61,966 nucleotides of DNA from Pyrinomonadales bacterium (GTDB lineage: Bacteria; Acidobacteriota; Blastocatellia; Pyrinomonadales; Pyrinomonadaceae). The stretch covers positions 1 to 61,966 of the forward strand of contig JBBQUS010000032.1 in the NCBI GenBank assembly GCA_038212235.1. The letters run 5' to 3'. Shown here in pieces: positions 7,442-61,301 of the stretch (position 1 is the stretch's first letter; every line of letters starts with the position of its first letter). The notes under the pieces are model-generated. The model saw only the letters and a program-made list of their open reading frames with translations, ran no database searches and was not told the DNA's origin. A program made the translations under genes and the position numbers.

Positions 7442-7530
7442 AACAGTTATCAGTTATCAGTTATCAGTTATCAGTTGCCAGGATTGTTCCTCAGACAATT
7501 GATAACTGTTGACTGTTTACTGTTGAGTGA
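7442..7530. repeat. Heptanucleotide tandem array (CAGTTAT)x4-5 followed by inverted copies (ATAACTG, TGACTGT) between the mtgA start codon and the upstream gene stop
   Basis: ataacagttatcagttatcagttatcagttatcagttgcc ... caattgataactgttgactgtttactgttgag. Confidence 0.9.
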
Positions 7531-10671: not shown

Positions 10672-11742
10672 ATGTCAAATTTTGAAGATACTAGGCCTAT
10701 CAGAGCAGGCGAAGAACTCGATGAGCAAAATTTAGCCGAATTTTTGCGGGCGAATTTGCAGATCGGCAACGACCGGATTGAGATCAAACAATTTCCCGCC
10801 GGAAGCTCGAATTTAACTTATTCGGTCAGATTTGGCGAACAGGAATTTGTTTTGCGCCGCCCGCCGTTTGGCAACACGGTCAAAACCGCGCACGATATGC
10901 GGAGAGAGTTTCGCGTCCTCTCCGCGCTTTCCAAAGTGTACTCGCCAGCTCCGCGCCCCGTCTTGTTTTGCGATGATGAAAAGGTGACGGGCACGGATTT
11001 TTATCTGATGGAGCGAAAGCGCGGAATTATCCTGCGAGGATTGCAAGTGCCGGAGGAACTGGCAAATTCTGCTGAACTCCAGCGCCGCGTTGGCGAAAGT
11101 TTTGTTGATAATTTAGCCGCGCTTCATAATCTCGACTATGAAAAAGCGGGACTTGGCGATTTGGGCAAACCGGAAGGTTATGTGAGACGCCAAACTTTAG
11201 GCTGGACGGAGAGATATTTTAAGGCTAAAACCGACGAACATGCCGAACTGGAAGCGGCAATCGCGTGGCTCAACGCCAACATTCCAGAAGATTTGCAAAA
11301 GCCCGCGCTCGTTCACAACGATTATAAATTCGACAACGTGATGCTTGACGAAAGCGATTTGACTCGCGTTGTCGCGGTGCTCGACTGGGAAATGGCGACA
11401 ATCGGCCAGCCGCTGATGGATTTGGGAACGACGCTCGGTTATTGGATGGATAAAAACTCACCGGAATTTCTCCGAACCATGCCGTTTAATCCGCGCGTCC
11501 TGATGGAAAACTTAACGCGGCTCGAACTGGCGGAACGTTACGCCGAAAAAACCGGCAGCAATCTCGATAATCTGCTTTTCTACTATGTTTTCGGCACTTT
11601 CAAAATCGCCGTCATCGCGCAGCAAATTTACTTTCGCTTTGTTAAAAAATTGACGCAGGACAAACGCTTTGCCAACTTCAACCAATTTGTCGCGGCGCTC
11701 GGGCGCATTGCCGCAAACGCAATCGAAAAAGAGATGGTTTAA
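10672..11742 (+). CDS. Phosphotransferase enzyme family (APH/choline kinase-like) kinase
   Basis: Brenner/APH motifs: LVHNDYKFDNVML (catalytic HxDxxxxN) and VLDWEMAT (DxE). Divergent from the ACAD with only about 30 bp between start codons. Confidence 0.75.
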   Translation: MSNFEDTRPIRAGEELDEQNLAEFLRANLQIGNDRIEIKQFPAGSSNLTYSVRFGEQEFVLRRPPFGNTVKTAHDMRREFRVLSALSKVYSPAPRPVLFCDDEKVTGTDFYLMERKRGIILRGLQVPEELANSAELQRRVGESFVDNLAALHNLDYEKAGLGDLGKPEGYVRRQTLGWTERYFKAKTDEHAELEAAIAWLNANIPEDLQKPALVHNDYKFDNVMLDESDLTRVVAVLDWEMATIGQPLMDLGTTLGYWMDKNSPEFLRTMPFNPRVLMENLTRLELAERYAEKTGSNLDNLLFYYVFGTFKIAVIAQQIYFRFVKKLTQDKRFANFNQFVAALGRIAANAIEKEMV

Positions 11743-11767
11743 AGTAAATCTCGGGTAATTCAAAGGC

Positions 11768-11928
11768 AAATGTAGGGGCGAGCGGCTTGTCCCCACCCAA
11801 TGAGCCGAAGGCGAACAACGCATTATTATCCGCGATGTTTTATAATCGAACATATTAGTCAATCGAAGACAATTATCGCGTTGCCAAAGCTCAACGCTCA
11901 TTGGGTGGGGACAAGCCCACAACCCCTA
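11768..11928. repeat. MITE-like element: about 35-bp imperfect terminal inverted repeats (TGTAGGGG...CTTGTCCCCACCCAATGAGC) flanking an AT-rich core of about 90 bp
   Basis: The left arm at about 11769-11803 is the reverse complement of the right arm at about 11893-11927 with about 5 mismatches. Lies between convergent genes. Confidence 0.7.
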
Positions 11929-11969
11929 CAACTAAAAACATTTATCAGCGTCAATCAGCCTAATCCGCG

Positions 11970-13055
11970 TCATCTGCGGTCTATTTTCTGCAACATTTCC
12001 CGAAGCGGCCAGTCGTCGTCAAAAATTATCTCTATTTCAACCACAAAACACGGCAAACTGAATTTTAAATTCTTTAATTTTACCGCGTCTTTGGCCGTTG
12101 TCAGCAATATTTCCGCGCCGTTTAAGCGCGCTTGATTCTCAATAAAATCAAGGTCAATTTGTTGGTAAACGTGATGATCCGGAAACGCTTTGACGGATGC
12201 GAGGAGAAAATCCGATTGCCGCAGGCTCTCGAAAAATCCGTGCGGATTGCCGAGCGCGCAAAACGCCAGCCCGATTTTGGATTTCGTATTTCGTATTTCG
12301 TATTCCGCGCTCGATAAATCCGGTGATTTGGCGGGAAACCCTCTGATATTTGTCAGCCCGACGATTCGAGTTTTTGACAGCAAAATCTGACAAGTTGCAT
12401 TGAGACTTTGGACTTTGAGCTTTAAACTTTGAACTTTGTCGCTCAAATCGGCGCGGGTTAAAACTACGCAATCGGCGCGGCGCAGACTTGTTAAAGACTC
12501 GCGAAGGATTCCAGCGGGTAATAATTTTTCATTGCCAAAAGGGTTGGTTGAGTCTATGCAGACAATGTCCAAATCGCGTTTAAGCCTCAGATGCTGAAAG
12601 CCATCGTCCAGAACAAAAGCCGTAATTCCCCAAGTCCTGAACGCCCAGATTCCGGCTGCCGCGCGATTTTTGTCCGCAATGACGGCTGCCATCCCGAGTA
12701 ATTTGTTTGAGAGCTCAAACGGTTCGTCACCTGCGCTCTCGGCATCGGCTAAAATTTGCTGTCCATCGGAAACTAAAACTCTTTTTGTCGGGCTAGCGCG
12801 TTTGTAGCCGCGTGTCAGAATACAGACTTTGTGTCCGCGTTCGGCTAAAACTTCAGCCACAAATCGGACGAGCGGCGTTTTGCCCGTCCCGCCAACCGTT
12901 AAATTTCCGACGCTGATAACCAGAGCGCCCAAATCAACCGATTTGAAAAAACCGTGACGGTAGAGTCTGCGTCGCCCTCCGGCGATTCCGCCAAACAGCC
13001 AGCCAAACGGCGCCAGCAATTTTTCAGCTTGTTTGTTCAAATTATTTTTCCGCAA
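11970..13055 (-). CDS. lpxK: Tetraacyldisaccharide 4'-kinase
   Basis: VGNLTVGGTGKTP P-loop, DDGFQH, TAKDAVK motifs. Contains two in-frame heptamer repeat blocks. Confidence 0.85.
   Translation of the reverse strand: MRKNNLNKQAEKLLAPFGWLFGGIAGGRRRLYRHGFFKSVDLGALVISVGNLTVGGTGKTPLVRFVAEVLAERGHKVCILTRGYKRASPTKRVLVSDGQQILADAESAGDEPFELSNKLLGMAAVIADKNRAAAGIWAFRTWGITAFVLDDGFQHLRLKRDLDIVCIDSTNPFGNEKLLPAGILRESLTSLRRADCVVLTRADLSDKVQSLKLKVQSLNATCQILLSKTRIVGLTNIRGFPAKSPDLSSAEYEIRNTKSKIGLAFCALGNPHGFFESLRQSDFLLASVKAFPDHHVYQQIDLDFIENQARLNGAEILLTTAKDAVKLKNLKFSLPCFVVEIEIIFDDDWPLREMLQKIDRR
12278..12308. repeat. (ATTTCGT)x3-4 heptamer tandem repeat inside the lpxK CDS
   Basis: gatttcgtatttcgtatttcgtattccgc. 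On the coding strand it encodes AEYEIRNTKSK. Confidence 0.85.
12404..12437. repeat. (GACTTTG/AACTTTG) heptamer-derived repeat inside the lpxK CDS
   Basis: gactttggactttgagctttaaactttgaactttg. Encodes QSLKLKVQSL on the coding strand. Confidence 0.8.
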
Positions 13056-25012: not shown

Positions 25013-26356
25013 ATGAAAAAACACACGATTTTCGCTCTTTTGGCTCTTGTAACATGCGGATGTTTCGCCGCTTCAAGCTGCACTTCGATTCCAAACACGG
25101 TCACATCGCAACAGCCCGCCGCGATTACACAACTTACCGGCGAGCAACTTTCGCTTATTTTACCCAAACTTGCGCCGCCGCAAGCGTTGGCGCAATTGGC
25201 TGGAAATAAAGAGCAAGTCGAAGTTCTGCTAAAACAGGTTAAGCAAGTTTTGGCGCTGGCGGCGGATGCCAGAAAAAGCGGGATCGCGGATGAACCCGGC
25301 GTCAAACAGCAGCTTGATTTTACGGCTGCATCGGTTCTGGCGATTGAGTTTGAGAGAGATCAAAATAAAACCGCTCCTGATTCGCCGGCCGCGCCTTTTG
25401 CCAGCATCAAGCCGGAGGACGTTTCGGTTTTTATGGCCGAAGCGGGGAATGAGGCAAAGTTTAACTCGTTTGTCGAAGTTATCAAAAAGCAAATCGCAGA
25501 CGCGGCTCCGGCCGGCGCGCCGCCGAGAGATATCACCGATGACCAGCTCAAACAGTTTCGCGAACAGTGGGCAAAAACTTTGATTACCGAACGCAAAGCC
25601 AGAGCCGCCGGGTTCGACAAAAAGCCGGAGATCGCTTTGCAAATCGGTTTGCAGCAGGCAAGTTTGCTGGCTCAGGAATACGGCAAACGCAAAGATAAAG
25701 AGTTTGACGTGGAAGATGCGACACTTAACGATTACATCGCGCAGCATCCGGAATTTGACACGAGCAAACAGCGCGAAAAGGCCGAAGGCGTTTTGAAACG
25801 CGCCCAAGCGGGCGAAGATTTTGCCAAACTTGCCAATGAATTTACCGAAGACCCCGGCAATAAAGATCCGAAAACCGGCAAACCAAACGGCGGACTTTAC
25901 ACTGACATCAAAAAAGGACAGTTTACGCCTGACTTTGAAAACGCCGCTCTTGCGCTTGAAAAAGGAAAAATCACTGCGAACTTGGTTGAAACCCCTTTCG
26001 GTTATCACATCATCAAATTAGAAGATAAAAAAACGACCAAGGATAAAGACGGCAAGGACGAAGAAACTTTTTCGGTACGGCATATTTTGATCTCGACCGC
26101 TGGCCCGCCCGATCCGAGCAATCCTTTTAGTCAGCCGAAAAACATGCGGGAAAGCGCCCGGGACAAAATCAAAAAAGAGAAAAGCGACAAATGGATTGAA
26201 GAAGTCGAAGCGCGCAATCCAATCACATTGCCAAAACCCGAAGAAGTTAAAATCGAAGCTCCGACGCTGCCCGTTCCGCCGTCAGGATTGGGAGGCGGGC
26301 AGCCGCAGCCCGGTCCTCCGCCAGCAGCCGCTCCGCCGTCAAACGAGAAAAAATAA
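25013..26356 (+). CDS. Parvulin-type peptidyl-prolyl isomerase lipoprotein (SurA/PrsA-like) with a Pro/Gly-rich tail
   Basis: Lipoprotein signal (LVTCGC). PpiC motifs VRHILIS, FGYHIIKLEDK. Confidence 0.75.
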   Translation: MKKHTIFALLALVTCGCFAASSCTSIPNTVTSQQPAAITQLTGEQLSLILPKLAPPQALAQLAGNKEQVEVLLKQVKQVLALAADARKSGIADEPGVKQQLDFTAASVLAIEFERDQNKTAPDSPAAPFASIKPEDVSVFMAEAGNEAKFNSFVEVIKKQIADAAPAGAPPRDITDDQLKQFREQWAKTLITERKARAAGFDKKPEIALQIGLQQASLLAQEYGKRKDKEFDVEDATLNDYIAQHPEFDTSKQREKAEGVLKRAQAGEDFAKLANEFTEDPGNKDPKTGKPNGGLYTDIKKGQFTPDFENAALALEKGKITANLVETPFGYHIIKLEDKKTTKDKDGKDEETFSVRHILISTAGPPDPSNPFSQPKNMRESARDKIKKEKSDKWIEEVEARNPITLPKPEEVKIEAPTLPVPPSGLGGGQPQPGPPPAAAPPSNEKK

Positions 26357-26401: not shown

Positions 26402-27820
26402 TTGAAATCATCTACCAGAGCGTTGCTCGCAATCGGCGTTTTCGCCGTTTTAATGATCGGCTTGCTCGTCTGGAGCGTTCAGTATAACCGCGCCAAAGCC
26501 GAAGAGCTGGAAAAACAGATTTTAACGAAATTGGATGGAAAGGACATTAACCTTTTAATCCAAAGTCAGGCCAAAGGCAGCCCGCAGCAACTGGCCGCGC
26601 TCAACGATAATCCAGCCGCGCGCAAAGAGATTTTGGAGCAGCTGCGCGGTTTGCTGGCGGAAGGCGCGGCCGCCCGCCGCGCCGGATTTGCGGATGATCC
26701 GGCGACCAAAGCGCAAATGGATTTGCAGGAAAAAATCCTGGTTGCCAACCTTTACGACACCGAACAAAATCAGGGTAAACCCGCCCCGCCATTCGGCAAC
26801 GTGACGCCTGAGGAAATTGATGCCTTCTGGAAAAATCCGGCGCATGAGGCCGAATTTAACAAAGCGCTTGACGTTCAAACCAACGCCGTCAAAGCTGCCG
26901 GTCAAACCGCGCCGAAACTTGAAGGAAAAAGACTTGATGACACCCGAAAAGCGTTTGCCGGTTTGATGGTCACTTACGAAAAAGCCAAAGATAACGGGAA
27001 GTTTATGAGCGAGCGCGAGTTGCAGCTGCAAATAGCTTTGCAGCAAACGATTTCGCTGGCGCGCGAATACTCAGCCAAAAAACTTGCCAAAGAAGTCGAG
27101 CCGACTAAAGAAGAAATCGCCGCCTATCTTGTTCAGCATCCGGAATACGACGCCAAAAAACAGCGCGAGAAGGCCGAAAGCATTTTGCTTCGAGCCAAGG
27201 CGGGCGAAGATTTTGCCGCGCTGGCCAATGAATTTACCGAAGACCCGGGCAATAAAGACCCGCAAACCGGACAGCTCAAAGGTGGTTTATACGAAGACAT
27301 TCCGCAGGGCTCGTTTGTCCCGGAATTCGAAGCTGCGGCGCTCGCAGTCGAAAAAGGACAGGTCGTGCCGAATATTGTCGAGTCACAATTCGGTTATCAC
27401 ATTATCAAGCTCGAAGACAAAAAAGTCGGCAAAAGCCCTGACGGCAAAGACGGAGTGATTTTCTCGGCGCGTCATATTTTGCTGCAAAGCAAATTTCCCG
27501 CTCCGAACAGCAGTCCGATGGGACGACCGCAAATGTTGAGCGGCGATGAAATTGCCCGCGCCGCCGTGGGTGAAGAAAAACAAAAGAAAGTGATTGAAGA
27601 ACTGGTCGCCCGCAACAAAATCGAATTGCCCGAAGATTTCACGGTTGACGTTCCGGAAGGGGCGGACGGCAGCGCGCCGCTGCCGCCGCAAAATATGCCG
27701 CCCGGAATGATCGCGCCTACCGCGCCAAAAGGCGGCAAGCCGATTGCGGCAGCGCCAAACGGCAAACCCGTAATAGCGGCGCCGACCGTCGCGCCAAAAG
27801 CAACAAGTAAAAAACCGTAG
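26402..27820 (+). CDS. Parvulin-type peptidyl-prolyl isomerase, membrane-anchored, tandem paralog of the upstream gene
   Basis: TTG start with an upstream GGAG. TM anchor. EFTEDPGNKDP...GGLY...FGYHIIKLEDKK block shared with the upstream gene. Confidence 0.75.
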   Translation: MKSSTRALLAIGVFAVLMIGLLVWSVQYNRAKAEELEKQILTKLDGKDINLLIQSQAKGSPQQLAALNDNPAARKEILEQLRGLLAEGAAARRAGFADDPATKAQMDLQEKILVANLYDTEQNQGKPAPPFGNVTPEEIDAFWKNPAHEAEFNKALDVQTNAVKAAGQTAPKLEGKRLDDTRKAFAGLMVTYEKAKDNGKFMSERELQLQIALQQTISLAREYSAKKLAKEVEPTKEEIAAYLVQHPEYDAKKQREKAESILLRAKAGEDFAALANEFTEDPGNKDPQTGQLKGGLYEDIPQGSFVPEFEAAALAVEKGQVVPNIVESQFGYHIIKLEDKKVGKSPDGKDGVIFSARHILLQSKFPAPNSSPMGRPQMLSGDEIARAAVGEEKQKKVIEELVARNKIELPEDFTVDVPEGADGSAPLPPQNMPPGMIAPTAPKGGKPIAAAPNGKPVIAAPTVAPKATSKKP

Positions 27821-46890: not shown

Positions 46891-47547
46891 ATGGTTGCCG
46901 TCCTTTCGATTTCCTTCATTGCAATCGCCGTCCTGATCGTTTACACGATTGGGCGGCGACTTTTCTATGACGAGCCGGAAAGCCAAACTCGCTTGCAGCC
47001 GCTTAAACCCGTCACACTCTTTGCCCCCGACGCAAAATTGCTGGCGGAAATCGAACAAGCGGAGCATTACCGGAAAGCTGCGGAAGAAAGCGAAAGAGTA
47101 ATGGCTTGGGCAAGTCTGGTCAAGTTTTCGGAATTGAAGGAAATACCTCTTACTGAAAATAAAGAAATAGCAAATGATTCGCTCGAAATCTTGACCGACC
47201 GCGCCGAATTGAGCGAAGATGTGCTCGCGCTCAGTTCGTTTGTCGTCAACCATAAAACGTTAAATGTAAACCAAAAACTCATCAACAAGTTTCAAATCTG
47301 TTGGGAAAACGCGCCCGATCTGCAAAAGACAACCGAATTTTTCGAACTGGCTCTGCGCGCCGACGACGCCGATTTATTTCAAAGCGTTTTTAACGAATCC
47401 GAGCGATTGATCACAAACGGTAAATTGTCTGATTTGGATTTGAACGAACTTCGCGAATTGGCAGCCAGTCATTTTTGGCTGCTTTCATCAAGCGCCAGAA
47501 TGTCCGGCGCTGGCTTTTGGCTCAAACAAAAGCTTAATTACAGTTAA
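46891..47547 (+). CDS. Hypothetical membrane-anchored protein (218 aa)
   Basis: N-terminal TM helix. No motif recognised. Confidence 0.45.
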   Translation: MVAVLSISFIAIAVLIVYTIGRRLFYDEPESQTRLQPLKPVTLFAPDAKLLAEIEQAEHYRKAAEESERVMAWASLVKFSELKEIPLTENKEIANDSLEILTDRAELSEDVLALSSFVVNHKTLNVNQKLINKFQICWENAPDLQKTTEFFELALRADDADLFQSVFNESERLITNGKLSDLDLNELRELAASHFWLLSSSARMSGAGFWLKQKLNYS

Positions 47548-47575
47548 CAGTCAGCAGTTAGCAGTCAACAGATTT
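47538..47575. repeat. CAGTTAACAG-family heptamer repeats abutting a stop codon
   Basis: ttacagttaacagtcagcagttagcagtcaacag. The TAA stop of the upstream gene lies within the first unit. Confidence 0.85.
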
Positions 47576-49835: not shown

Positions 49836-49962
49836 GTTTAACTGATAACAGAAAACGGAAAACGGATAATTTTAGGTTCCTGCGCCTTTCATTATTCGTT
49901 TTCCGTTTTTCATTTTTAGTTTGGTTTTTGAGCATGTTACGATTAGATTTTCAGCATTATTA

Positions 49963-51240
49963 ATGAACGAAAATATTCAAGTCACGCGCCTCGCCAACGG
50001 GCTCACAATTCTAACCGAAAAAATGCCTGATTTGCGTTCGGCGACAATCGGCATCTGGCTTAAAAAAGGTTCTCGACACGAACCGGCAGAACTAAACGGA
50101 ATTTATCATTTTATCGAACATGCGGTTTTTAAAGGCACACAAAGGCGTTCTGCGTTTGACATCGCGACGGAATCAGACCGCCTCGGCGGCAACCTCGACG
50201 CCTTCACTTCGCATGAATCAACCGGATTTGTCATGAAGGTCGTGGACAAAAGTGTTCCGCAAGCCTTTGATTTACTGGCGGATATGGTAATCAATCCGCT
50301 CTTTGACAAAACCGAATTGCGGCGCGAGCAAAAAGTTATTATCGAAGAAATGAAAATGGTTGAAGATTCGCCCGAAGAATTTTTGGGGGAACTTTTTAAC
50401 CACGCTTTTTTTCCCGATCATCCTTTAGGTTTGCCGATTGAAGGCACGCGCCAAACTGTCAAAACTTTTGATCAGGAAACGACCGCCGCCTTTCACCGCG
50501 AAACATTCACGCCCGGTAATTTAATCGTCGCCGCCGCCGGAAATGTTGAACACGCTCAAATTGTCGAACTGGCAAGTAATTTTTTCGTCGCTCAAGAAAC
50601 GGAAATCCAAAATCCAAAATCCAAAATCCAAAATCCAAAGATGGCTGCTCCGATTTTGCTTAAGAAAAAGCCCGATCTGGAGCAGGCGCATCTGGTCATC
50701 GCCACGCCGTTTGTGACGGCAAAAAGCGAACAACGTTACGCCGCGCATCTTTTGACCAATATTATCGGCGGCGGAACTTCGTCGCGGTTGTGGCAATCGG
50801 TGCGGGAAAAACGCGGGCTGGCGTATTCGGTCGGGGCAAGCGCGATTTCATTTCAGGATTGCGGAGTGTTCTCGATTTATGCCGGAACTTCGCCCGTGCA
50901 GCTTGAAAAAGTCGTAGCTTTGTCAATTAGCGCAATGCGAAAAATGGTCAGGCGAGGTGTTTCGGCGGCGGAACTTGAACTGGTTAAAGAACAGGCCGCT
51001 GCTTCGATTTTGTTTGGTCTCGAAGATTCGAGCGTCCGCGCCGCGTCACTGGCCGAAAACGAGATGATTCACGGGCGGCAAATCTCGCCCGACGAAACCT
51101 TAGCCAACTTTCAAAAAGTTTCGACCGCCGACGTCCAAAATGTGGCGGCGGAGTTTTTTCAAACTGATAAAATCGCGCTCGCCGCGCTTGGCAATCTCAA
51201 CGGTTTCAAAGTCAAACGCTCGCGTTTTGAAACGGCGTAA
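49963..51240 (+). CDS. M16-family (pitrilysin/insulinase-like) zinc peptidase
   Basis: Inverted zinc motif HFIEHAVFKGT (HxxEH). Contains an in-frame (AAATCCA)x5 repeat encoding EIQNPKSKIQNPK. Confidence 0.75.
   Translation: MNENIQVTRLANGLTILTEKMPDLRSATIGIWLKKGSRHEPAELNGIYHFIEHAVFKGTQRRSAFDIATESDRLGGNLDAFTSHESTGFVMKVVDKSVPQAFDLLADMVINPLFDKTELRREQKVIIEEMKMVEDSPEEFLGELFNHAFFPDHPLGLPIEGTRQTVKTFDQETTAAFHRETFTPGNLIVAAAGNVEHAQIVELASNFFVAQETEIQNPKSKIQNPKMAAPILLKKKPDLEQAHLVIATPFVTAKSEQRYAAHLLTNIIGGGTSSRLWQSVREKRGLAYSVGASAISFQDCGVFSIYAGTSPVQLEKVVALSISAMRKMVRRGVSAAELELVKEQAAASILFGLEDSSVRAASLAENEMIHGRQISPDETLANFQKVSTADVQNVAAEFFQTDKIALAALGNLNGFKVKRSRFETA
50603..50639. repeat. (AAATCCA)x5 heptamer tandem repeat inside the M16 peptidase CDS
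   Basis: aaatccaaaatccaaaatccaaaatccaaaatccaaag. Confidence 0.9.
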
Positions 51241-56204: not shown

Positions 56205-56248
56205 GGTGAATAGTAAATAGTGAATAGTAAATAGTGAATAGTGAATAT
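56205..56248. repeat. (GTGAATA/GTAAATA)x6 heptamer tandem array immediately upstream of the gltP-like start
   Basis: ggtgaatagtaaatagtgaatagtaaatagtgaatagtgaatat. Confidence 0.9.
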
Positions 56249-56311
56249 AAAAGTAATTGTGAAGTTTACTCGTCCGCATATTCTTATATTTTCCTTTATT
56301 TTCCTTGAATG

Positions 56312-56339
56312 CACCATTTACCATTCATCATTCACCATT
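56312..56339. repeat. Inverted copy of the GTGAAT-family heptamer array
   Basis: caccatttaccattcatcattcaccatt is the reverse complement of aatggtgaatgatgaatggtaaatggtg. Confidence 0.8.
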
Positions 56340-58961: not shown

Positions 58962-59048
58962 GGGATGAAGGATGAGGGCGGAGAGATGAAAGCCAATGAA
59001 TCTAATCAAATTAGATTATCTATTTAATTTCATCCCTCATCCTTCATC
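58962..59048. repeat. Compound hairpin between emrA-like and emrB-like genes: 15-bp outer stem built from GATGAAG/GATGAGG heptamers, with a nested AATCTAAT-CAA-ATTAGATT palindrome
   Basis: gggatgaaggatgaggg...ccctcatccttcatc. Inner aatctaatcaaattagatt. Confidence 0.7.
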
Positions 59049-59065
59049 ACTCATCTTTCTTCTTT

Positions 59066-60679
59066 ATGGCTACCAGCACTGCCGCGCTTGACGCAAAATA
59101 TAGTTCTGCCGAAAAGTCGCGCCCCGATATCAATCCGATTCTGGTCGTGATGATTTTAACAATTGCGACGTTTATGGAAGTGCTTGACACTGCCATTGCA
59201 AATGTTTCTCTGCGGCAAATAGCGGGCAGTTTTTCCGCCGGTCAGGACGAATCAACTTGGGTTTTAACTTCGTATCTCGTTGCCAACGCGATTGTTTTGC
59301 CGATCAGCGGCTGGCTTGCCACATATTTTGGGCGCAAACGATTTTATATGTTTTGCGTCGGATTATTCGTCGTCAGCTCCTTTATGTGCGGAGCTTCGAC
59401 GAGTCTCGGAATGCTGATTTTCTTTCGCATTCTGCAAGGTTTGGGCGGCGGCGGTTTGGCTCCGTCCGAGCAATCTATTATTGCCGATACGGTTCCGCCG
59501 CAAAAACGCGGCATCGCCTTTGCAATTTACGGGATGGGCGTAGTTTTTGCCCCGGCCATCGGCCCGACCCTCGGCGGCTGGATTACTGATAATTACAGCT
59601 GGCACTGGATTTTCTTTATCAACGTCCCGGTCGGAGTTTTATCGCTTGCGCTCACCTGGTATTTTGTCAGAGAGCCAAAAGGAACAGCAATCGAGCGCGA
59701 AAGACTAAAAAAAGAGGGCTCCAAAATTGATTGGGTAGGTATTTTGCTGTTTGCAGTTGGCATCGGCGCGCTTGAGATTGTTTTGGATGAAGGTAATCGC
59801 GAGGATTGGTTTGAATCAAGTTTTATCATCGCTTTCGCGATTGTCGCAGTTATCTCTCTCGTTATTGGGATTACCTACGAGTTTTACCAAAAACACCCGG
59901 CAGTTGATGTGCGGCTCTTGTTAAATCGTAACTTCGCTAGTTCTTTTATACTGCTTTTTGTTCTAGGTTTCATTCTTTTCGGCTCGACTTTTTTATTGCC
60001 GTTAATGGCGCAATCTCTGCTCGGATACTCGGCGATTGACGCCGGAATGGTTATTTCGCCGGGCGGCCTGGTTGTGATGGCAATGATGCCCGCCGTCGGT
60101 TTTATGCTGCAGAAAGTTCAGGCGCGCTGGCTAATTCTGGCCGGATTAACCATTTCCGCTCTCTCTCTCTGGCATTTGACAACGCTTAGTTTGGACGCGG
60201 ATTATTATTCACTAATGTGGGCGCGAATATATCAGGCTTCCGGTCTGGCGCTGCTGTTCGTGCCGATTAACACGGCTTCCTACACGGGCGTTCCGGCCAA
60301 CAAAAGCAATAGTGTCTCGGCTCTGATGAATCTCTCACGAAATCTTGGCGGCAGTTTCGGCATTGCAATTTTGTCCACGCTTTTAGCCAGACAGACGCAG
60401 CATCACATTAACACCCTTGGCTATTACACAACCGATTACAGCCCAAACTTTGTCGCGGCTCTTAACAAACTCACGCAAATTTTGCAGGAGCAGGGTTTAA
60501 GCGCGATGGACGCCGCTACTCAGGCTCGCGGCAGAATCTGGTCTAATGTTATTAGACAAGCTACGATGCTCGCTTTTATTGATGATTTTTATATTTTAAT
60601 GCTTTTGATTGCCGGTGCGATTCCGCTCGTCTTTTTGCTCAAAGCAAACAAACCGGGAGCAGGCGGCGGGGGACATTAA
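59066..60679 (+). CDS. MFS transporter, DHA2/EmrB-QacA family (14 TM)
   Basis: 537 aa. MFS motif A region. EmrB-like conserved N-terminus (MEVLDTAIANVSL). Confidence 0.85.
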   Translation: MATSTAALDAKYSSAEKSRPDINPILVVMILTIATFMEVLDTAIANVSLRQIAGSFSAGQDESTWVLTSYLVANAIVLPISGWLATYFGRKRFYMFCVGLFVVSSFMCGASTSLGMLIFFRILQGLGGGGLAPSEQSIIADTVPPQKRGIAFAIYGMGVVFAPAIGPTLGGWITDNYSWHWIFFINVPVGVLSLALTWYFVREPKGTAIERERLKKEGSKIDWVGILLFAVGIGALEIVLDEGNREDWFESSFIIAFAIVAVISLVIGITYEFYQKHPAVDVRLLLNRNFASSFILLFVLGFILFGSTFLLPLMAQSLLGYSAIDAGMVISPGGLVVMAMMPAVGFMLQKVQARWLILAGLTISALSLWHLTTLSLDADYYSLMWARIYQASGLALLFVPINTASYTGVPANKSNSVSALMNLSRNLGGSFGIAILSTLLARQTQHHINTLGYYTTDYSPNFVAALNKLTQILQEQGLSAMDAATQARGRIWSNVIRQATMLAFIDDFYILMLLIAGAIPLVFLLKANKPGAGGGGH

Positions 60680-60797
60680 TCAGTTAACAATTAATCAGTC
60701 AACAGTTAACAGTCAACAATACAAAAGCTTTACACAAAGTCAGCGTCTGTTGATCTATGATAACTGTTGACTGTTAACTGTTAACTGTTAACTGATT
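60679..60797. repeat. Inverted pair of CAGTTAACAG / CAGTCAACAG heptamer arrays (arms of about 40 bp) spanning the space between convergent gene ends
   Basis: taatcagttaacaattaatcagtcaacagttaacagtcaacaat ... atgataactgttgactgttaactgttaactgttaactgatta. Confidence 0.9.
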
Positions 60798-61301
60798 AGG
60801 TATTGGCAGCCAACGCCAATCTTCACCGTACAATTCTTGATTTAACCGCTCAATCTTTCTCTCGGCGTTATCTTGCAGGCATTGCGGCGGCAAATCCTCC
60901 TGCCGTTCGTAACAAGCGTGTTGAATGCACGGAGCGGGTTTGGCTTCGTCGTGAACCAGGCAACCGATTTTCGGCTCAAAAAGAGGGCACGCGTAAGTTT
61001 GCTTAAAAGTGTCTCCAGTTTTATCTAACGCATATTTTTTAATTGTCTCTGCAAGACGCTCGTCAATTTTTTTCAGTTCTTCGGCGTTTAATTTACGCTG
61101 CAAAGTTTCGCGGATTGCGACGGCTTCGAGCGGCGTGATGTGAACGTTAACAAAATGAGCGTCGGTGCAGCACGCACCAAAAGTCGGACAGGCGGCGCAA
61201 TCTTGGGCTGCGGTTTCAAAATTCTCACTGATAAATTTACGGTAAGAATCTTTGACGCGGCGTAATTCCGTCAAAGATTCTTGTTCAAGAATGGTCGGCA
61301 T
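60774..61301 (-). CDS. YkgJ-family (UPF0153) zinc/iron-chelating Cys-cluster protein
   Basis: CAACPTFGACC (CxxCxxxGxCC) motif and further conserved Cys. The C-terminal codons run into the heptamer repeats. Confidence 0.6.
   Translation of the reverse strand: MPTILEQESLTELRRVKDSYRKFISENFETAAQDCAACPTFGACCTDAHFVNVHITPLEAVAIRETLQRKLNAEELKKIDERLAETIKKYALDKTGDTFKQTYACPLFEPKIGCLVHDEAKPAPCIQHACYERQEDLPPQCLQDNAERKIERLNQELYGEDWRWLPIPNQLTVNS

Follow-up and report, generated by a model that had tools for sequence, protein, structure and literature searches.

REP and REPIN repeats, together with domesticated RAYT transposases, are known mainly from Proteobacteria and more sporadically from Cyanobacteria, Planctomycetes and Verrucomicrobia, and the classical families comprise tens to hundreds of copies. 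HUH/Y1 single-strand transposition, established for the IS200/IS605 elements, needs no terminal duplication. GTAG-tagged REPs are short units of 20-40 bp with a GTAG-type tag at one end and, directly beside it, a stem-loop whose stem has 5-13 bp; a genome carries many dispersed copies. Their HH dimers have GTAG on the outside, contain a spacer of 20-100 bp with a tendency to conservation, and include heterodimers with different stems; these REPs lie near the 3' end of convergent or unidirectional ORFs, often overlapping the ORF ends, and a separate group of RAYT-like (TIRYT) transposases is described for Acidobacteria (Di Nocera et al. 2013, PMC3733652). Examples of RAYT-flanking REPs in Table 1 of Nunvar et al. 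(2010, PMC2817692) are TGTAGGAGCGGCCTTGCGTCGCGAA, GTAGGGTGGGCTTCAGCCCACC and GTGGGAGGGGGCTTGCCCCCGAT. REPINs are described by Bertels & Rainey (2011, PMC3116915) as inverted pairs of REPs with spacings of 71-110 bp, which form single-stranded DNA hairpins and constitute the replicating unit.

We analysed a window of 61,966 nt (the whole stretch of DNA presented above, 62 kb) from a Pyrinomonadales bacterium. Homologues of its LpxK protein assign it to the Pyrinomonadaceae (Acidobacteriota, Blastocatellia). An inverted-repeat search of the whole window revealed that positions 11771-11930 form a 160-bp imperfect palindrome, organised as a head-to-head pair of REP-like units with a spacer, which is the longest inverted repeat of the window. 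The left arm (11771-11805, + strand, TGTAGGGGCGAGCGGCTTGTCCCCACCCAATGAGC) and the right arm (11896-11930, - strand, GCTCATTGGGTGGGGACAAGCCCACAACCCCTACA) are each 35 nt long, are complementary at 30 of 35 positions (86%) and have 90 nt between them. Read as a REP-like unit with its GTAG head pointing outward, the left arm is TGTAGGGG-CGAGCGG-CTTGTCCCCACCC-AATGAGC; the right arm is the inverted unit, with the minus-strand reading TGTAGGGG-TTGTGGG-CTTGTCCCCACCC-AATGAGC. Pairing between the arms is perfect over the outer 8 nt (TGTAGGGG with CCCCTACA) and over the inner 20 nt (CTTGTCCCCACCCAATGAGC with its complement), and the 7 nt separating these two blocks are unpaired. The inner 20-mer occurs exactly twice in the window, once per strand, with 0 occurrences expected from 100 shuffles, and by analytic calculation chance alone would give about 9e-7 inverted repeats of this quality (30/35, arms within 200 nt) in 62 kb. 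The half of the inner stem at 11796-11805 (+ strand, CCCAATGAGC) pairs with GCTCATTGGG at 11896-11905; this stem of 10-11 bp is invariant in all four copies described below, where every GC/AU pair is kept (alignment columns 27-37 and 128-138). The spacer, or core (11806-11895), is 90 nt long and partly palindromic itself, and its ends, CGA-AGGCGAACAACG and CAATTATCGCGTTGCCAAAGCTCAAC, are kept in other copies. An earlier note, made from the letters of this DNA, had announced 35-bp terminal inverted repeats around an AT-rich 90-bp core. The repeats are real and of that length, and only their coordinates (~11769 and ~11893) were off by 2-3 nt; the core does measure 90 nt, but its GC content of 40%, compared with 48% in the window and 60-66% in the arms, makes it only mildly AT-rich.

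The element sits inside the 227-nt gap between two genes that are convergent, as had been proposed, and that both belong to Pfam families. An APH-family phosphotransferase gene (PF01636; 10672-11742, + strand) ends with a stop codon at 11740-11742, 28 nt before the element, and lpxK, encoding tetraacyldisaccharide 4'-kinase (PF02606; 11970-13040, - strand; P0001, 356 aa, 100% identity), ends with a stop codon at 11970-11972, 39 nt from it. The element has no coding capacity. Both ORFs that had been called spurious are present and run through it: ORF 11512-11922 (- strand) is antisense to the APH gene, ORF 11800-12135 (+ strand) starts at the ATG of AATGAGC and is antisense to lpxK, and neither has a Pfam match. 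The peptide of ORF 11800-12135 was found neither among 5.8 billion nor among 1.84 billion predicted proteins.

Repeats of other kinds are also present in the window. Tandem repeats of 7-nt units (among them CAGTTAT, AAATCCA, ATTTCGT and TTGAACT) are spread over the intergenic DNA, with arrays at 7444-7476, 7505-7526, 12281-12304, 12400-12438, 47540-47571, 49847-49917, 50603-50639, 56209-56339, 59029-59059 and 60675-60794, and they are often inverted across a gap (60685-60718 versus 60765-60798; 49840-49870 versus 49891-49921). Two of these arrays lie in frame within lpxK and encode KVQSLKLKVQSLN and EIRNTKSKIG; SKIQNPKSKIG is found at the same place in the LpxK of relatives, and KIQNPKSKIQN in the unrelated protein P0121, corresponding to (AAAATCC)n in frame. 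Near the contig start, positions 60-100 hold a perfect palindrome of 20+20 nt (AAGAAGAGGAGCGAGAGATT/AATCTCTCGCTCCTCTTCTT) around a 1-nt centre, preceded by (CCG)7 at 4-26. Finally, a 291-nt direct repeat with 73% identity (25742-26032 and 27134-27424) lies inside the adjacent ORFs 25013-26356 and 26402-27820, which look like tandem paralogous genes.

Three further Pyrinomonadaceae contigs, L006, L033 and L035, carry the same element at the stop of an unrelated gene, in copies of 133-150 nt that have the same arms and a partly conserved core. The first of these, L006 (QQTW01023867.1), was the sole match when the metagenome collection was scanned with the inner 20-mer. It belongs likewise to the Pyrinomonadaceae, and its flanks are unrelated to those of the window copy. 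The L006 copy is 133 nt long; one of its arms equals the left arm of the window at 34 of 35 bases, the first 15-16 nt of its core (CGA[T]AG[A/G]CGAACAACG) are shared with the window copy, and its second arm is the variant TGTAGGGGTGCGGACAAGTCCGCACCCCAATGAGC. The host site is the very end of the gene for a conserved hypothetical protein of 392-400 aa, upstream of a DUF354 gene on the same strand, and in L006, L033 and L035 alike the element lies across the upstream gene's stop codon and precedes the same-strand DUF354 gene. The last 19 codons and the stop of the L006 protein come from the element (VGASGLSPPNEPIDEQRFQ, then the stop). Homologues of this protein end 0-4 residues past a conserved ARLLE, and the L033 protein has 9 element-encoded residues. 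The element accounts in this way for the two spurious ORFs of the window and for a false C-terminal tail of 19 residues in a homologue, which is of value for annotation. L033 and L035 carry the element at the orthologous site, next to flanking proteins 82% and 78% identical, respectively, to that of L006; L035 holds a full copy of 150 nt, and the L033 contig stops inside the second arm. All four copies, that of the window included, can be aligned over their full length, through the arms, the conserved left end of the core and a GTT(A/T)TCGCG block near its right end, with spacers of 63-90 nt. The near-identity of one arm between L006 and the window, set against the larger divergence among the orthologous copies, suggests that the two are closely related or that the copying was recent.

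When these four copies were made into a profile HMM, it recovered no others in 324 kb of DNA, with no second copy in the 62-kb window and none either in about 80 kb of related loci chosen on other grounds. The earlier note had proposed a search for additional copies: the window holds one only, and the three others are in related contigs, at an unrelated locus. A single copy with no flanking direct repeats would, according to that note, have pointed to a large terminator; a copy without relatives is not what was found, since the element recurs at this second locus in three contigs. The core of L035 is perhaps inverted relative to those of L006 and L033 when compared by way of the window copy (W-B1, same orientation, 91 versus 43; W-B3, flipped, 96 versus 52), and the direct comparison of the L006 and L035 cores is ambiguous (57 versus 52). 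Three of the four Logan contigs reaching an element end inside it or just beyond an arm (L001, L002 and L033). These contig breaks hint at repeats or at a hairpin-related loss of coverage, and the element may account for short-read contig breaks at this place.

We compared the arms of the four copies with one another. All eight start with (T/A/G)GTAGGG, end with CC(C)AATGAGC and measure 34-35 nt. Between these ends the sequence is rich in G/C and either forms a hairpin, frequently with a CTTG/CAAG loop, or keeps only the remnant of one that has decayed. One L006 arm has a perfect 10-bp stem, GGGGTGCGGA-CAAG-TCCGCACCCC (z -5.8), and one L035 arm has a 6-bp stem (z -2.0), whereas both window arms and three others fold no better as single arms than shuffled sequences (window left arm, z 0.4). 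The GGGG...CCCC mini-palindrome that had been described is literally present in each window arm, but it does not fold better than shuffled sequence (z about 0); it is a decayed form of the hairpin that is intact in other copies. The TIR motif of the TIRYT group, GGGGWSAS, is not present in the arms: on inspection of GGGGCGAG, GGGGACAA and GGGGTGCG the closest match covers 7 of 8 positions, and there is no adjacent transposase.

We then considered the same sites in relatives. At the LpxK/APH site, the element is absent from L003 (LpxK 83% identical), where the gap is 102 nt, from L037 (72%), where it is 80 nt, and from L005 (71%), where the two genes overlap. At the second locus, L036 (74% identical protein) has a gene end without the element and L034 (69%, a 4.79-Mb contig) has a different intergenic sequence without it; the proteins of both finish with tails of the ...ECKIKNAKF type. 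Since the element is missing in more distant relatives at both loci, it was acquired at least twice. It is a discrete unit that occupies two unrelated loci, at or just after gene 3' ends, and it was gained at each of them relative to distant relatives. After its acquisition, the copy at the second locus was passed down through considerable divergence. The junctions read ...GGCAAA|TGTAG...CTACA|ACTAAA in the window and ...TTAGA|AGTAG...CTACA|AATGTT in L006. The target-site duplications that the earlier note had proposed looking for are visible neither at the window locus nor at the second locus: no direct repeat flanks the element at either, the alignments with empty sites being too diverged to give base-exact junctions. 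Both loci display other inverted repeats as well. The L034 gap, occupied by the element in L006, L033 and L035, contains a different imperfect palindrome of about 85 nt (11215-11300, ACAGGGATAAACAAGATAA ... TTATCCTGTTCATCATGTTTGTCCCTGT). The LpxK/APH gap of relatives is bracketed by an inverted repeat, AGACCGCAGAT(G/A)ACGCGGATT, lying over both stop codons (L003, 6490-6605; L037, 2135-2230). The window keeps only the lpxK-side half of this repeat, at 11962-11982; this half forms a small hairpin with a T-run on the + strand and has a terminator-like score.

Folding predictions gave one long hairpin for each full copy, as single-stranded DNA or as RNA. As single-stranded DNA, the window element alone reaches -43.2 kcal/mol (z -9.4), and the L006 and L035 copies have z values of -3.6 and -4.4. 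The intergenic region as RNA, an assay suggested by the earlier note, folds on either strand into a single long hairpin (-81.8 and -93.8 kcal/mol, z -8.0 and -7.6). A consensus scan for intrinsic terminators made no call on the element, and no U-run follows the hairpin on either strand, the tails being AACTAAAAAC on the + strand and TTTGCCTTTG on the - strand. The best local matches to Rfam have E values of 0.3-4, far under the gathering scores, and no gathering-level match occurs anywhere in the window. Covariation across the four aligned copies is negligible, and the element is no better conserved than adjacent non-coding DNA.

Wider searches indicate that the element family is rare in public data. 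None of 185,579 representative genomes matches the pattern GTAGGGG-N7-CTTGTCCCCACCC. A looser version, GTAGGGG-N17-CCCAATGAGC, has 26 matches in the genome collection, close to chance expectation, and none of the 26 has a partner arm. Only one of these 26 matches is meaningful: in L029, a Planctomycetales MAG, a lone unit between hsp20 and clpB (408-442, TGTAGGGGCGGACCTTGTGTCCGCCCCCAATGAGC) starts with GTAGGG, has no partner arm, and forms a perfect 9-bp stem that the search pattern did not demand (z -5.9). This unit may be distantly related to the element or may have arisen by convergence. The pattern matches in L012 and L030, which have no relationship to the element, come from a single MAG and lie in a paralogous region of 1.6 kb. 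Three scans of viral contigs and a plasmid BLAST yielded no copies, and no candidate for the spurious ORFs as encoded by other copies was found in 5.8 billion proteins; in a profile search of 1.84 billion protein representatives the sole matches were two eukaryote-like proteins with tandem repeats, which count as noise.

A transposase that could move the element was sought in the same material. The gene tables of the window and the related loci list no RAYT/Y1 transposase, phmmer searches with approximate RayT and IS200 TnpA queries against all ORFs of the window and related loci returned nothing, and neither the genome, the metagenome nor the viral pattern scans revealed a longer element or a full-length IS with the same ends. 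In L005 (Pyrinomonadaceae MAG GCA_040005335.1), the APH orthologue is directly preceded by a TnpB (OrfB_IS605 / Cas12f-like) gene (12176-12734); elements of the IS200/IS605 type do occur in the Pyrinomonadaceae, and the sequence of this one is unrelated to the element. We also set aside three further readings. An integron attC site would not explain the ends, which do not match RYYYAAC/GTTRRRY, and neither an integrase nor a cassette context is present. Against Tn3-type ends stand the non-terminal position of GGGG and the lack of a 5-bp duplication, and against a retron or ωRNA the fact that no RT or TnpB gene adjoins the element.

We conclude that the 160-bp unit is a copy of a small, non-coding, hairpin-forming repeat family of the Pyrinomonadaceae, probably a REPIN-like HH dimer mobilised in trans by a putative enzyme of the RAYT type. 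The proposal that this is a non-autonomous miniature element or a REP/BIME-like repeat is supported by the copies at an unrelated locus in three contigs and by the relatives that lack the element. That the palindrome arose by chance, or is peculiar to this locus and without relatives, would agree with the single copy in the 62-kb window; with about 1e-6 such repeats expected and homologous copies at another locus in three contigs, this is exceedingly improbable. A classical MITE, that is, a derivative of an internally deleted IS of the DDE-transposase type moved by cut-and-paste through its 35-bp terminal inverted repeats, would share the size (133-160 bp), the lack of an ORF, the two unrelated loci and the presence or absence among relatives, but we consider it unlikely. 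Target-site duplications are visible at neither locus, the scans gave no longer element sharing the ends, and a GTAG head with an internal hairpin, whose stems differ within one element, is the format of REPs and not that of IS ends. The REP/BIME-like alternative fits better than the MITE because the arms have this head and, in some copies, the hairpin, and no target-site duplication is seen, and the lack of flanking direct repeats is in keeping with HUH/Y1 single-strand transposition.

The position, always at gene 3' ends, and the great stability of the RNA hairpin (-82 to -94 kcal/mol) recall instead a selected structural signal in RNA or DNA, such as a bidirectional terminator or a hairpin stabilising 3' UTRs, which would not be a mobile repeat at all. 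The retention of the second-locus copy where the flanking protein is only 78-82% identical, and the other inverted repeat that relatives have over both stops of the LpxK/APH gap, one half of which is lost in the window, go in the same direction. However, there is neither a U-run, a terminator call nor an Rfam match, the close relatives manage without the element at both loci, its conservation does not exceed that of nearby non-coding DNA and covariation is negligible. Moreover, the presence of the same sequence at unrelated genes implies copying and not independent origin, and we regard such a signal as quite improbable. Any terminator-like role would follow from the presence of the element and is compatible with the REPIN-like explanation.

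Under the REPIN-like explanation, a HUH tyrosine transposase of the RAYT/TIRYT type, encoded elsewhere in the genome, would move, or would have moved, the element in trans as a single-stranded hairpin. Because neither the window nor the related loci contain a RAYT/Y1 gene, this cognate enzyme is purely one that we infer. After insertion, the element would be transcribed within the 3' UTRs of the convergent genes, where its long hairpin might shield transcripts or end them, incidentally and not by design; a transcribed hairpin that ends or stabilises the convergent mRNAs is a plausible, secondary role. A bolder and rather doubtful extension would take these copies for the first sign of a system of the REPIN-RAYT type in Acidobacteriota: a low-copy, vertically inherited population of REP doublets with GTAGGGG heads, maintained at orthologous 3'-UTR sites through divergence at the genus level, able to rewrite the C-termini of proteins and sharing its REP unit with a Planctomycetales genome, which might amount to an ancient cross-phylum REP type served by an acidobacterial clade of RAYT-like (TIRYT) enzymes. 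If the REPIN-like architecture is true in these uncultured soil Pyrinomonadaceae, the known host range would be extended, with no new mechanism.

How closely does the element correspond to the systems described? Bacterial MITEs such as Correia/NEMIS and RPE are likewise small, non-coding and intergenic, have terminal inverted repeats and sometimes extend ORFs; unlike them, the element has no target-site duplication or parent IS, and its ends are REP-like hairpins. With the HH dimers of GTAG-tagged REPs it shares units of ~35 nt that start with (T)GTAG(G) and, in some of the arms, contain a G/C-rich stem-loop with CTTG-type loops, the inversion of two such units with GTAG outside, and a partly conserved spacer within the range of 20-100 bp. 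As in the heterodimers, the two arms of one element can have different stems, and the location agrees as well, 28-39 nt from the stop codons here and over an ORF end at the second locus. It differs in its acidobacterial host, for which Di Nocera et al. (PMC3733652) give only TIR-flanked RAYT-like genes and no GTAG REP family, in an extra conserved AATGAGC tail that extends the pairing from arm to arm, in the decay of many arm hairpins, and in an apparent copy number that is very low (one in 62 kb, two loci in the clade), with no RAYT found. The REPINs of P. fluorescens SBW25 and Enterobacteria (PMC3116915) have in common with the element an inverted REP doublet with a spacer that folds into one long single-stranded DNA hairpin, a spacer less conserved than the ends, and the behaviour of a unit, which turns up at intergenic positions that are new and persists at orthologous ones. 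They number tens to hundreds in each genome, accompanied by a single-copy RAYT, whereas the element is known here from 62 kb and related loci, and their arm starts are spaced by 71-110 nt, against 98-125 nt in the element. The element closely resembles REPINs and is a fairly ordinary addition to the known repeats.
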